Positions 1-38,603 of a stretch of DNA of 64,000 nucleotides are shown in pieces. Each line of letters begins with the position of its first letter. Within the stretch, counting starts at the first letter, position 1. The notes under the pieces are model-generated. The model had not been told where the DNA came from and did no database searches. It saw only the letters and a program-made list of their open reading frames with translations. Source of the DNA: an uncultured Acidobacteriota bacterium. GTDB lineage: Bacteria > Acidobacteriota > Terriglobia > UBA7540. The translations under genes and the position numbers were made by a program. Location: assembly GCA_963804995.1 (NCBI GenBank), contig CAWDSK010000003.1, forward strand, positions 1,632,001-1,696,000, in the 5' to 3' direction.

Positions 1-250
1 CTTTCTTTTCATAAACATCGGTAGAAAACAACCATAACTTACTTCTTTTCATCAACATCGTTAGACTTGCCAAGTTGTCGCTTTTGTTTTCCTTTGTTTT
101 CATACACATCGTTAGACTATCCTGATTGAAATTATTTGCGCTATTTTTCTTGCCGCAGTAAATGTAACTCATTGCATTTAAACTAGATAGGTTTTTGGTA
201 AAAAACCACTTTCCACGCCTAACAACCTTTATTATCAATAACATATTCAC
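1..250 (-). repeat. AT-rich five-box non-coding element, copy 1 (may be truncated by window start)
   Basis: Repeated TTTTCATnnACATCG-type boxes at 6-20, 46-60, 97-111 plus degenerate boxes near 165-190 and 219-250. Bases 1-19 are the exact reverse complement of 29907-29925. Confidence 0.75.
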
Positions 251-842
251 AAACAGCGAGCGCTTCCGGTCCTTCTGCGCATGACGGATGTGGTTTAACC
301 TTCACGAGCAAGTTCGTCAAGCCGGTAGCAGAGTGTGGTACTTTCACACTCTACGGCTCTTCTTCAAATGCACCCCGGCTCACCGAGATGATATTACAGT
401 GCATGTTTATCATATTAAGAACCGCAGATTGTGAAAGGACCACACGCTAACTGCCTGGACGCATCATGGCGCCACGCTTCCTCACCTCTATTGTGCTCTT
501 CATCGAGTGGGTTATGTCAATAGGATAAACACACTTTACGGCTACCGGTAGCCCAAAAACAAAATAGATCTGACAAACCGCCCGTTCGAGGCGGGCCTGA
601 CCAGTTTTTCCAGCCCCGGCTGCATCCGACCACTCACGTGGCCGTAACTGGCCGGGGAGCCCGAGGCGTGCCTCCCCCGTGCCGGAAAGCGCCGCCCCCA
701 CATCTAACAGAGGCGCCACCAGGTTGTTCGAGCCCTGCGGTCTTGTCGCATTCCAGGTTTATTGCTACACTGAGTAATTGCATTCAGGTTCCAATTCTGG
801 CAGCTTGCCGGGACCTTTCAGTCTGGGCTTACGAGGCACTTC

Positions 843-26228: not shown

Positions 26229-27933
26229 GAGCTTGTGACTTTTTTGGTCACCAGTAAGGGGGGATGGGTGGGGGGAGGAGGCAGAAAATCGGGAGCGGAG
26301 GTACGGAGAGAGAAAAAAGCTGGCGGTTGGGTCGGTACTTGTATTAATATAAATGTTATGGACAACGTTTTACATTCAGATGATTTTAAATTAGGAATGG
26401 AACCGGCGGTAGGTCAGGAAGCGGAAGGAAAGGAAGAGAAGGGCGCGAAGGGGGCAGCAGAGCGGCGCGGGGCGGTGCGTTTGCGCCGGCCGGAGCGCCA
26501 GCAGATGGCCTGGGTGGCGCAATGTCCGGACGATCTGGTGGGGCCGGGGCACGGGGTGCGGCGGGTGGCGGCGGTGGTGGAGCGCTTGGACTTAGCGGCG
26601 TTCCGCCTGCCGATCAAGGCGCGGGAAGGAGGGGCTGGACGGGACGCGACCGATCCCCAGCTTTTAGTGTCGCTGTGGTTATACGCCTGTGTGCGGGGCA
26701 TCGGTGCGGCGCGCGAACTGGCGCGGCAGTGCCAGGAGCATGCGGCCTTTCGCTGGCTGTGCGGAGGGGTGACGGTGAACCACCGTTTGCTGTCGGACTT
26801 TCGCACCGATCACGCCGAGGCCTTGGACACCCTGTTCACGCAAGTGATCGCTGCTCTGGTGGATAAAGGAGTGGTGAAGGTCAGCCGCATCAGCCAGGAC
26901 GGAATGCGGGTGCGGGTGGGGGCGGGGAAGAAGAGTTTTCGGCGGGAAAGGCGGCTGGAGGAACTGCTGGGGGAAGCGGAACGGCACGTGGCGGAGTTGA
27001 GACGGCAACTGGAGTCGCCGGAAGGAGCGGGGCTGAGCGCGCGGCAAGCGGCGGCGCGGAAGCGGGCGGCGCAGGAGCGGCAGAAACGCCTGCAGGAGGC
27101 GATTGCGCAACTGCCGGAGCTGCAACGCCGGCACACCGCAAGGGTAAAGCGGACGGGGGGAAAACGGGGCCAGGAGATTGCGGCGCAGCCTCCGCGGGTG
27201 AGCACGACGGATGCGGAAGCGCGCATCATGAAGATGCCCAACGGGGGCTACGACCCGGCGGTGAATGTGCAGTTGGCGGCGGACCCGGAGAGCCGCGCCA
27301 TTGTGGGGGTGGAGGTGAGCGCGGAAGGTTCGGACTCGGGAGGACTGAGCGCGCCGCTGCGGGAACAGGTGGAACAGCGCACGGGCGGGAAGGTGGAAGA
27401 GCACTTGTTGGACGGCGGGTACCTGCGCAAGGAAGACTTGGAAGCGGCACACGCGCAGGGCGTGGCGCTGTTCATCCCGCCGCACACGGCGCAAAATCGT
27501 CAGAAGCGGGGGAAGGAACTGGAGCCCCAGAAGGGCGACAGCGAGGCCGTACGAGAGTGGAAGCAACGCATGAAAAGTGAGGAGGGAAAGAAAATCTATC
27601 AGCAGAGAGCGGCGACGAGTGAAACCGTCAACGCCGACTTGCGCACCTATCGCGGTTTGGGCCGCATCCTGGTGCGCGGGCTGGCCAAGGCACGCTGCGT
27701 GGCACTGTGGTGCGCCCTGGCTTACAACGTGATGCACTTCGCGCCCCTGTTGCTGGGCTAACCAAGCCCTGCCCAGCCGTACCGGGCACGGGTGTAGGGC
27801 GGATTCCCCCGGTACTCCTTGCCGCGCGGCACCGCTCCACCGGCCAAGGGGAGCCCTCTCGCGCACTTCCCAAGCTGCCCACTACCTGACCCGCCCCACC
27901 GCGTAACGGTGGCTTCGAAAAAGTCACAAGCTC
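26229..27933 (+). mobile_element. IS1182-family insertion sequence, ~1.7 kb
   Basis: Terminal inverted repeats GAGCTTGTGACTTTTT / AAAAAGTCACAAGCTC; flanked by CAG (or CCAGG) duplication. Confidence 0.9.
26358..27761 (+). CDS. IS1182-family transposase (start approximate)
   Basis: GRDATDPQLLVSLWLYA, FRWLCGG, LSDFR, DGMRV, STTDAEARIMK, DGGY, YQQR...ETVNA, LAYN. Confidence 0.92.
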   Translation: MDNVLHSDDFKLGMEPAVGQEAEGKEEKGAKGAAERRGAVRLRRPERQQMAWVAQCPDDLVGPGHGVRRVAAVVERLDLAAFRLPIKAREGGAGRDATDPQLLVSLWLYACVRGIGAARELARQCQEHAAFRWLCGGVTVNHRLLSDFRTDHAEALDTLFTQVIAALVDKGVVKVSRISQDGMRVRVGAGKKSFRRERRLEELLGEAERHVAELRRQLESPEGAGLSARQAAARKRAAQERQKRLQEAIAQLPELQRRHTARVKRTGGKRGQEIAAQPPRVSTTDAEARIMKMPNGGYDPAVNVQLAADPESRAIVGVEVSAEGSDSGGLSAPLREQVEQRTGGKVEEHLLDGGYLRKEDLEAAHAQGVALFIPPHTAQNRQKRGKELEPQKGDSEAVREWKQRMKSEEGKKIYQQRAATSETVNADLRTYRGLGRILVRGLAKARCVALWCALAYNVMHFAPLLLG

Positions 27934-28075: not shown

Positions 28076-29200
28076 CTACAACTTCAGCGTATAATCCCGG
28101 TAGGCCGGCCAGCCTTCAATCGAAGTGGCAGCCTTGATGGCGCGGACGATGGCCTCTGCAGCCACCTCACCCGCCAGGGCCCCGACCGTCGAGATCGGAA
28201 CCTCCGCCTTCAGCTTGTTTGTCGAGAGAGCGTAAAGCTGGTCGCCATCTCCCGTGGTGTGATAGGGCACAATGGCCCGCGCCGCCCCGCAATTGGCCAT
28301 CATGGCGATCTTGGTCATCTCCGTTTTGTTAAAGCTAACGTTGGTCGCCACCACCACCAGATTCGTACTGTTAAAGGGCGGATCGTTTAGGGCCAGCGAC
28401 GCCTGGGGTTTACCCGCGGCGAGTTCCGATTTCATGATCTCCATGGTATTCGCGAAACCTTTTCCATCCGGGCGGCGCGCTCCGGCGATGATCTTCCCGG
28501 TGCGCCAGTCCAGGATATCTCCTACCGCATTGATTACCACCAGCGCCGCAATGACCACTTCTCCCAAGCGCAGGCTCGCAGTGCCCAGCCCACCCTTCAT
28601 TCCGTGGTAGGCGCGGAGCATCTTCCCGACCGTGGCTCCAGCGCCTGCGCCCACGTTACCCTCCGCCACAGGACCCGTGGACGCTGCCTGGCACGCTTTG
28701 TAGGCGGCCTCGGGATCGGGCCGGATTCTTGCATCACCGATACCCACATCTGAAATCACCGCGCCCACCACTATGGGAATAGTCACGGGCATGTCCGGCG
28801 GCCCCCAACGGAACCCGATGTTGCGATCTTGCAGGTATTGGACGGCGCCCGCCACGGCTGCCAAGGCCGGCACTCCGCCGCCCGTCAGCAGCAATCCATG
28901 GATCGTCTGCACGGAGCTTGCGGGCTGAAGCATGACGGCCATCTGCTCACCGGGGGCGGAGCCGTCCCAATCCACCGCCGCCGTCGCCTCAGGGTCAAAA
29001 AGAATCGCCGTGCAACCCGTGGGACGGCGCGTGTCGGTCCAGTGCCCCACCTTGATCCCAGGGACATCCGTAAGTCCGCCCCCACCCGCTGCATCGGCGT
29101 TAACATCGGGCGCAACGGCCTTCGCCAATCCAGGGAGAAAACTGATACCGCTCGATACCGCCAGGGTTTTGCTGAATTGCCTTCGACTGAGTTTTGACAC
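28076..29200 (-). CDS. Tat-exported P1/S58 (DmpA/OAT-like) peptidase family protein
   Basis: SRRQF Tat motif, LTDVPGIKVGH, EGNVGAGAGATVGK, KGGLGTAS, NAVGD, HTTGDGD. Confidence 0.88.
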   Translation of the reverse strand: MSKLSRRQFSKTLAVSSGISFLPGLAKAVAPDVNADAAGGGGLTDVPGIKVGHWTDTRRPTGCTAILFDPEATAAVDWDGSAPGEQMAVMLQPASSVQTIHGLLLTGGGVPALAAVAGAVQYLQDRNIGFRWGPPDMPVTIPIVVGAVISDVGIGDARIRPDPEAAYKACQAASTGPVAEGNVGAGAGATVGKMLRAYHGMKGGLGTASLRLGEVVIAALVVINAVGDILDWRTGKIIAGARRPDGKGFANTMEIMKSELAAGKPQASLALNDPPFNSTNLVVVATNVSFNKTEMTKIAMMANCGAARAIVPYHTTGDGDQLYALSTNKLKAEVPISTVGALAGEVAAEAIVRAIKAATSIEGWPAYRDYTLKL

Positions 29201-29322: not shown

Positions 29323-29399
29323 TCACCGCAGAGGCGCGGAGGAGCGGAGATATTAAAACCAACGGCCATTTTCTCTGCGCCTCTGCGCCTCTGCGGTGA
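29323..29399. repeat. REP-like inverted repeat TCACCGCAGAGGCGC...CTCTGCGGTGA
   Basis: Long imperfect palindrome with internal CTCTGCG repeats. Confidence 0.7.
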
Positions 29400-29661
29400 A
29401 CTTGGCAATTCCTTCGCAAAGACCTGCTGCCCCCGCTGCAAATTTGCGCGCAAGAACCATTTCGGATAATTTGTCTCTCTTACTTTAGGATTTGGGCCAC
29501 CGGCAGACCAGTGCACATATTTTACTTTCAATAACACCTACTTAAAATGTTACTATTAATATTAAGTACCCGACGCCGGGGACGCTGTGTTAAGGGCTGG
29601 GGACTGGTGAGAAGCGGTAGTCAGTAAGCAGTAGGCGGAAGGCAGCGAATGAAGAGGACGT

Positions 29662-29933
29662 GCTAACCCATGATGTACCAGAAAACAAAGGTACTTAGGG
29701 GTAAAATGGCAGAAATGTCCAAACGCCTATGTATTTGAAGTTAAATAACTTAGTTCGATCCGACGGCGTGGGCGCGGTGAAACAGGGGGAATTAAAAATG
29801 AAGGTTCATCCCATGATGTTGTTGAAAACACATGTAGAAAAAATGTCAGTTTAAGGCTAACCCACTATGTTTATGAAAATTAAGCTAGTTATAGTCGCTA
29901 ACCCATGATGTTTATGAAAAGAAAGGGAGTTAG
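29662..29933 (+). repeat. AT-rich five-box non-coding element, copy 2
   Basis: Boxes GCTAACCCATGATGT..GAAAA.AAAG...TTAG with ATGT cores at 29673, 29729, 29816, 29867, 29908. Confidence 0.8.
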
Positions 29934-38345: not shown

Positions 38346-38422
38346 GGGCGGTTAGCTCAGTTGGTTAGAGCGTCTGCCTTACAAGCAGAAGGTCATCCGT
38401 TCGAGCCGGATACCGCCCACCA
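38346..38422 (+). tRNA. tRNA-Val (TAC)
   Basis: Cloverleaf GGGCGGT...ACCGCCCACCA, anticodon loop CTTACAA, TTCGA T-loop, encoded CCA. Confidence 0.97.
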
Positions 38423-38526: not shown

Positions 38527-38603
38527 GGGGACGTAGTTCAGCTGGTTAGAACGCATGCCTGTCACGCATGAGGTCGCGGGTTCGAGTCCCGTCGTCCCCG
38601 CCA
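38527..38603 (+). tRNA. tRNA-Asp (GTC)
   Basis: Cloverleaf GGGGACG...CGTCCCCGCCA, anticodon loop CTGTCAC. Confidence 0.97.

Follow-up and report, generated by a model that had tools for sequence, protein, structure and literature searches.

Tn7 and Mu carry at their ends arrays of sites for their transposases, TnsB and MuA. In Rep-iteron and small terminase-pac systems, a non-catalytic reader recognises repeats in or beside its own gene and an enzyme is recruited in trans; the Rep-iteron logic is one of phased repeats and co-evolving specificity. REP sequences are GC-rich hairpin units whose RAYT partner is an HUH (Y1) protein. In the sections of PMC3184786 that describe them, MITEs are defined as gene-less relatives of parent insertion sequences, and REP and BIME sequences are dispersed intergenic repeats targeted by other mobile elements. 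The element described in this study works like a transposon with its MITEs or like a Rep-iteron pair, yet it fails the defining tests of each. As with MITEs and their parents, many short gene-less copies keep both ends of a longer, gene-bearing parent (38/46), lie between genes and contain a promoter-like site; unlike them, the element has no terminal inverted repeats, target duplication or long stem-loop, and its parent gene encodes no known transposase (no DDE, HUH, Tyr, Ser or DEDD family). Like the ends bound by TnsB and MuA, it has several phased direct-repeat sites that its own protein is predicted to read, but the array stands at one end only, there is no DDE domain, and the ends are ragged. 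Its putative non-catalytic reader co-evolves with repeats at its own gene and diversifies in specificity, as in Rep-iteron and small terminase-pac systems; in contrast to those, it has no family or fold match, is chromosomal and dispersed, has gene-less derivatives, and is absent from catalogued phages and plasmids. With REP/REPIN-RAYT and BIME sequences it shares a dispersed, intergenic distribution, targeting by other mobile elements and a CTAC-NN-GTAG palindrome (here at the left end), while it differs from REP/REPIN-RAYT in having AT-rich direct repeats instead of GC-rich hairpins and a partner that is not an HUH (Y1) nuclease, no Y1 domain being found in the element protein by Pfam.

The window, a 64,000-nt stretch of the 7.55-Mb genome of a soil bacterium, contains two copies of a five-box array, copy A on the plus strand and copy B, inverted, at the window start. 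Each box consists of an 8-bp variable address followed by a constant A-rich core, ATGTTnnTGAAAAnAAA. The original prediction placed the box cores of copy A at 29673, 29729, 29816, 29867 and 29908 (+), with gaps of 56, 87, 51 and 41 bp, and both positions and gaps were confirmed. The minus-strand cores of copy B also exist, although the positions given for them (241, 185, 106, 55 and 15) are the lower ends of the 4-mers, the 5' bases being at 244, 188, 109, 58 and 18; its second box, listed as an ATGT core, reads ATCT, and its fifth extends beyond the window start. The last boxes of the two copies are identical over 19 bp, as had been stated. The linkers between boxes have indeed diverged, but they are homologous rather than unrelated: copies A and B align end to end (175/286 columns, score 197 compared to a shuffled maximum of 108) and, because they can be aligned over their whole length, are diverged homologues. 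The spacing conserved across diverged linkers, which had been read as a sign of function, reflects mostly common descent as far as these two copies are concerned. The parts of both copies are as follows.

29463..29473, plus strand: left-end motif of copy A, of the CGGACAAT type with one change
29494..29509, plus strand: degenerate left-end palindrome of copy A, three changes from the genome-wide GGGCTACCGGTAGCCC
29527..29556, plus strand: promoter-like stretch of copy A, function putative, aligned to its equivalent in a full-length copy
29665..29697, plus strand: box 1 of copy A, address AACCCATG and core
29721..29754, plus strand: box 2 of copy A, of a different, degenerate type without the common address
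29808..29835, plus strand: box 3 of copy A, address ATCCCATG and core, preceded by AAAAATGAAGG
29859..29892, plus strand: box 4 of copy A, address AACCCACT and core
29900..29933, plus strand: box 5 of copy A, address AACCCATG and core
574..584, minus strand: left-end motif of copy B, a variant
540..553, minus strand: left-end palindrome of copy B, GGCTACCGGTAGCC
490..520, minus strand: promoter-like TTGACA-19 nt-CACAAT of copy B, uncalled by a sigma-70 consensus scan
225..320, minus strand: remnant of the 3' end of the element gene in copy B, which continues into box 1; residues 351-382 by tblastn (66% identity, E 4e-5)
1..252, minus strand: boxes 1-5 of copy B, box 5 and a 3' extension running past the window start; addresses of boxes 3-5 GTCTAACG, GTCTAACG and TTCTACCG

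The five boxes are the right end of a dispersed element, and both window copies are internal deletions that keep both ends. Copy A has lost the whole element gene and retains a degenerate left end (29463-29556); the ORF that follows the promoter-like stretch in full copies is absent, with no tblastn match there. Copy B retains its left end (584-490) and the last 32 codons of the gene. Homology among copies ends at box 5 of copy A, 77 bp before a transglutaminase-like (TgpA) gene. Elsewhere in the window, a DDE transposase (DUF772, DDE_Tnp_1; 26235-27761, +), which has a 98% copy on C5, and an S58 peptidase (28076-29200) separate tgpA from its usual neighbour in relatives. Immediately left of copy A, at 29326-29401, is a small repeat with hairpin ends (CACCGCAGAGGCGC... 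/ ...GCGCCTCTGCGGTG), one of numerous short repeats found between genes of this genome, and a 32-nt inverted repeat pair lies within copy B at 330-448, in a stretch absent from other copies of its subfamily. An M-box magnesium riboswitch (Rfam RF00380; 16541-16719, -) and two tRNAs (38346-38419 and 38527-38600) were also observed.

A matrix built from the 10 boxes matched the genome 262 times at ≥15 bits, some matches being counted twice in a 3-bp-shifted register, compared to 2 matches in a locally shuffled genome. The spacing recurs as well, with the last three boxes 51 and 40/41 bp apart at 46 loci, which fall into seven sequence clusters (the largest with 19 and 18 members); approximately 74 loci hold a left end or boxes. 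Copy A DNA has matches in 22/24 genomes of the same genus and in 0/16 more distant genomes. From left to right, the full element consists of a left-end palindrome, a promoter-like site, a gene of ~380 codons and up to six direct-repeat boxes, of which the left end (GACAAT motif, palindrome and promoter-like site) and the gene are absent from the earlier reading. The left end begins with CGGACAAT, followed after ~22 bp by the palindrome GGCTACCGGTAGCC, then TTGACA and, 19 bp on, a -10-like hexamer; the sigma-70 consensus scan did not call this promoter-like site. The palindrome GGCTACCGGTAGCC has 69 genome matches with ≤1 mismatch compared to ~3 expected, and a left end lies ≤3.3 kb upstream of 38/46 arrays compared to 65/2000 random positions. 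In other genomes the palindrome is usually TTTCCTACCGGTAGGAAA, a relaxed core of it lies upstream in 37/79 loci (6 of the 37 from the source genome) compared to 8/82 mid-gene controls, and its form tracks the genome rather than the protein variant (by eye). A role of the palindrome as operator of a host stress regulon was considered and rejected, since in 11 cases checked a palindrome lacking boxes stood before an unrelated gene or a gene remnant. Four tandem left-end palindromes without boxes were observed at G000 C5:300718-301095.

It had also been stated that no cognate gene accompanies the boxes. This does not hold for full-length copies, where the element gene lies directly upstream of the boxes and its stop codon falls within box 1; the gene has been deleted from both window copies. 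Among 76 loci fetched from other genomes, at least two boxes lie downstream of the gene in 54/62 loci with enough flank and upstream in 0/52, and a metagenome scan gave one locus. Full copies often stand beside small toxin-antitoxin-like genes (HicB, Phd, PIN, ParE and HEPN by eye; AbiEii by Pfam), for example at G000 C2:501438, C2:130794, C5:735293 and C6:1747677 and at L115, a raw observation made without a background comparison. At E≤1 the element protein matches neither a Pfam nor an NCBIfam family, and its PHROG matches are only weak; 12 distant members matched no NCBIfam family. The model of the element protein is all-helical (pLDDT 79.9, pTM 0.60), with a small putative reading helix and a long helical stalk. 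Foldseek gave no match at E≤0.001, viral models included, and profile searches of solved structures gave weak unrelated matches only. The best VIA score (Z 10.2, rmsd 2.8, 107 aligned) was to a designed four-helix bundle and that of the N-terminal model was Z 5.8, both within the range of common helical arrangements, and the comparison barely covers residues 1-48.

In annotations, close homologues of the gene appear as hypothetical proteins of Terriglobia, and the protein profile matches 13,770 clusters (50% identity) at E≤0.001. Within the genus it matches 28/29 genomes; outside, the distribution is patchy (6/16 genomes, and 4/121 in a search scoring few candidates), and one complete genome of another family has 38 distant paralogues. 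Clusters from Planctomycetota and Myxococcota are among the structural look-alikes of a distant member. Purifying selection acts on the gene (median dN/dS 0.39 over 1196 pairs), and 45/60 ORFs are intact. On three viral contigs (L145:997-3522, L146:994-3642 and L147:928-3260) a distant homologue comes after the recombination genes YqaJ and ERF-DUF968 and has a AAACGAACC/AAACAAAGCC motif just 5' of its start codon. In G040, which belongs to another family, the gene itself contains the motif, on its opposite strand (loci L117-L143), at a fixed place in 17/24 loci, where it spells a GGFVF peptide and has an IHF-like TCAA-N4-TTA site upstream (by eye).

The addresses of boxes 3-5 resemble each other within one element (identity 0.67 compared to 0.38 when permuted, with a maximum of 0.44 in 2000 permutations; 45 dereplicated), while flanking control windows gave 0.25 compared to 0.22 and 0.35 compared to 0.35. 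Box 1 and an extra upstream box also carry the element's address; box 2 does not. Address similarity tracks residues 1-30 of the protein, encoded ~1.1 kb away (rho 0.62, permutation 95th percentile 0.12; 33 proteins), with rho of -0.22 to -0.03 for residues 121-330 of the same proteins; the C-terminal 40 residues, whose codons touch box 1, correlate with the address too (0.37-0.46). Given this tracking over 1.1 kb, the reader of the boxes is most likely encoded by the element itself. The same pattern is seen in natural swaps: L019 and L024 have the same middle region with a different N-terminus and address, and L046 and L024 the reverse. From 162 loci, 151 with the N-terminus and 108 with at least two boxes, 81 unique gene-array pairs were obtained, in which the address covaries with residues 4, 7, 13, 17, 21 and 24. 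The top corrected residue/base pairs are ordered along the helix and its arm (21/-8, 24/-6, 17/-4, 13/-3, and 4 and 7/-1), and a predicted helix spanning residues 11-21 contains residues 13, 17 and 21. Within the 81 pairs, position -4 is C with Asn17 (55/55), T with Ser17 (10/11) and G with Arg/His17 (6/7), and a purine accompanies Ile/Val/Leu17 in 8/8. Gly/Ala21 occurs with A at -8 in 41/45 and Gln21 with T or C in 28/29, and Arg4 with GA at -2/-1 in 10/10. L085, L074 and L121 are exceptions to this code.

The nearest neighbour by four residues recovers 6.2 of the 8 address bases, compared to 4.1 for the nearest by the middle region and 3.4 for a random choice (69 ORFs). On a tree of the middle region, independent pairs agree 10:0, 7:0, 10:0, 7.7:0 and 7.8:0, and for Arg/His17 one of 4 pairs agrees and 3 are uninformative; trees of the N-terminal region or the right-end DNA leave only 1-5 supported pairs for each trait, of which none goes against the pairing and none reaches significance by itself. 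The pairing is also seen by eye in homologues of 25-35% identity, and Asn17/Ala21 proteins of four viral contigs and other families adjoin AACCCAA or AAGCCA sites (by eye). It is very likely that this covariation reflects direct recognition of the address by the N-terminal helix, and since this first helix changes in step with the address, the protein probably singles out copies of its own element and probably aids their spread, with no cutting enzyme recognisable. Copy B belongs to the largest address class (18/46) and copy A to the next (16/46), and these two classes match the two gene variants for which recent duplicates exist (98.2% and 97.8%). The code would assign to copy B the intact Leu17/Arg21 protein, found on C4 and C6. 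To copy A it would assign the Asn17/Gly21 proteins of two loci on C2, whose reading frames are shifted near residue 317 but whose N-termini are kept. For copies A and B the binder would act in trans, as originally proposed.

Recurring phased spacing also argues for the proposed protein-binding scaffold with helical phasing. Of 66 loci from other genomes, 54 have a last gap of 40 or 41 bp and 12 have none at the threshold used; among the 54, the gap before it is 50-51 bp at 37 loci and 60-62 bp at 12, one helical turn apart. The exclusion of CRISPR arrays and REP sequences stood. The variable part is equal in all boxes of one element, which differs from CRISPR and TIGR arrays, no reverse-complement partner of the address was found within -330..+120, and no Cas or Nop-domain Pfam domain was found. 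The alternative of a modular RNA found no folding support (z -1.0 and +1.9), and the array has no Rfam covariance-model match or stable fold. The suggested strand bias relative to replication was not seen against local GC skew (25 compared to 21 of 46, the skew being weak). The downstream gene is co-oriented with 33/46 copies compared to ~56% expected from a crude gene call. The genome contains three IHF/HU genes, and the consensus for IHF is WATCAANNNNTTR; against this consensus, which may not be that of the host, boxes 3-5 match no better than shuffles and box 2 slightly better. Boxes as coding micro-ORFs were rejected, their reading frames differing between subfamilies (by eye).

Presence and absence at orthologous sites make mobility probable. 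Three genomes, namely the source genome, G008 and G018, have a full element between gyrB and gyrA (the gene pair being recognised by eye), and none was found at this locus in G043, G013 or G020; in G043, the closest by gyrA identity, these neighbours are only 22 bp apart. The gyrB-gyrA copy appears old and vertically kept in three species, which fits a host function too. Upstream of tgpA, among the best 20 loci of a search, arrays occur in 3/18 relatives at other distances, a single box in one and none in 14. No inverted pair joins the ends of copies A, B or a full copy, and the longest common word across the ends of 38 elements averages 5.37 compared to 5.42 for mismatched pairs, which gives no sign of a target duplication, although one may have been lost from old copies. 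The flanks that related copies have in common vary in length on either side, and the ends are imprecise; recent near-identical pairs start and stop at common motifs, as gene conversion between existing copies would give, and copies are mosaics. No fresh insertion was caught at base resolution: the source genome and the fetched loci gave one weak, unusable empty-site candidate, two further synteny searches gave no clear empty site, and the contigs of four DNA runs, whose coverage is uninformative on this point, held the element in short pieces with no end-to-end joint. Given the lack of terminal inverted repeats, target duplications and a catalytic domain, how the element moves is something that we infer.

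Two element pairs are fused in opposite orientation near a box (G000 C5:473478-473708 and C6:1401225-1401975), suggesting recombination between copies, and a ~2.0-kb repeated insertion, 99.95% identical, lies in or beside elements at G000 C5:267243 (+64 to +2079) and C6:1395250-1397265. The element is also preyed upon by an IS6-like insertion sequence (1.94 kb, DDE_Tnp_IS240-like transposase, GGTT...AACC ends, ~8-bp duplication), with copies at G000 C3:400324-401778 (L149) and six other places and at loci L164-L179 of G003. It lies 14 bp before the extra upstream box in 5/7 copies, a sixth being at the same site and split by another insertion, and in G003 a box lies at an identical distance from it in 7/9 copies. 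Its position indicates that something fixed, a structure or a bound protein, is present there. Because it is present in only 3/29 genus genomes with the query used, it was rejected as the general mover. Among the literature matches listed, with subscription journals outside their coverage, no description of the element was found. Many short repeats are reported in Solibacter (PMC3174227); the passages of that paper on them, which leave the repeats themselves to its supplements, do not mention this family.

The best explanation, to which we give about an even chance, is a selfish element whose gene product reads the address with one helix and whose array is the handle for a borrowed host enzyme that copies the element to new sites. 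The N-terminal helix would likely read the 8-bp address in each box, the protein would coat its own phased boxes, whose A-rich cores may bend, and the complex of protein and array would likely be the handle that recruits a host recombination enzyme, which would copy the element elsewhere. The protein would act in cis on the boxes of its own gene, and deleted copies, among them the two non-autonomous derivatives in the window, would be served in trans. Whether the mover is indeed a borrowed host enzyme is, on its own, evenly poised; against the explanation, no catalytic domain or partner enzyme was found, so that movement by the element's own agency is likewise a matter of what we infer. A recombinase activity of the protein itself, of a new catalytic type, would give the one-gene anatomy and deletion derivatives that autonomous transposons and MITEs have, and His43, Glu59, Arg98 and Arg101 are near-invariant; it is very unlikely, as the all-helical model has no nuclease-like core, no Tyr, Ser or DDE set is invariant across distant members, and the ends are not sharp. 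Still further down, it is highly improbable that the boxes are a passive repeat homogenised by slippage or conversion, with the protein-address link arising from co-inheritance of flanks around a converted middle. Copies are mosaic and flank-based trees leave few independent pairs, as such a process would predict, but the homogenisation is limited to 8 bp in boxes with unrelated linkers, and the residue-base pairs are position-specific, ordered along one helix face and found in the 25-35% identical homologues as well (by eye).

There are other potential explanations in which the protein still reads its boxes. It is possible, though unlikely, that the element is a portable regulator or chromosome organiser kept for the host. 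In that case the protein would belong to a new family of transcription factors or DNA-bridging proteins, and its operators or anchors, the arrays, would have been moved around passively by rearrangements and by other mobile elements. The co-oriented downstream gene in 33/46, the orthologous copy before gyrA in three species, the purifying selection and the small reading helix with its long stalk would all suit such a role; several address classes within one genome, sites that vary among congeners, deleted copies that retain the left end too, downstream genes without obvious common function (by eye) and the patchiness beyond the genus (6/16; 4/121 in the search scoring few candidates) do not. 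Somewhat less likely is a packaging parasite, in which a protein like a small terminase on pac-like boxes recruits the large terminase of a phage or gene-transfer agent, and the element with variable flanks is transduced and fixed by homologous recombination. Own-site recognition near its own gene, a helical hairpin, variable flanks, no target duplication and the placement of homologues after YqaJ and ERF genes in 3/4 viral contigs, with the motif just before the start codon, are in keeping with this, as is an N-terminal motif that may resemble HGGxSTG/terminase proteins. One of 93 family members weakly matches a terminase small subunit PHROG (E 0.0037), while the other 92 do not; there is no TerS fold among the listed matches, viral models gave no fold match, tblastn against 50,697 phage records matched nothing, no large terminase was seen among the neighbours scanned, and transduction alone leaves new sites unexplained. 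Less likely again is a selfish mini-origin, with an initiator protein on iteron-like boxes and local over-replication giving ragged-ended extra copies that recombine in elsewhere. It is consistent with phased direct repeats that have A-rich cores, with co-evolving specificity and with the capture of variable flanks to the left and right, but no Rep or winged-helix family or fold match was found, 72,556 plasmids gave no match, and dozens of active origins should be costly.

Under the preferred reading of a selfish element moved by a borrowed enzyme, the findings could be generalised, with slightly less than an even chance, to a new mobile-element class that carries no enzyme: a reader with a simple, natural one-helix code and a matching address array. 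Such an element would diversify its address to escape its gene-less parasites and would belong, as a single branch, to a superfamily of about 13,800 protein clusters that lacks annotation and includes Planctomycetota, Myxococcota and phage-like elements. For this very large superfamily, the results give a first predicted function, sequence-specific DNA reading, together with its likely sites. They also provide a residue-to-base table, drawn from natural variants, that single substitutions can test; few new DNA-binding folds offer this. Should the element spread without a catalytic enzyme of its own, it would represent mobile DNA that is invisible to transposase-based annotation, at approximately 74 loci in this genome.
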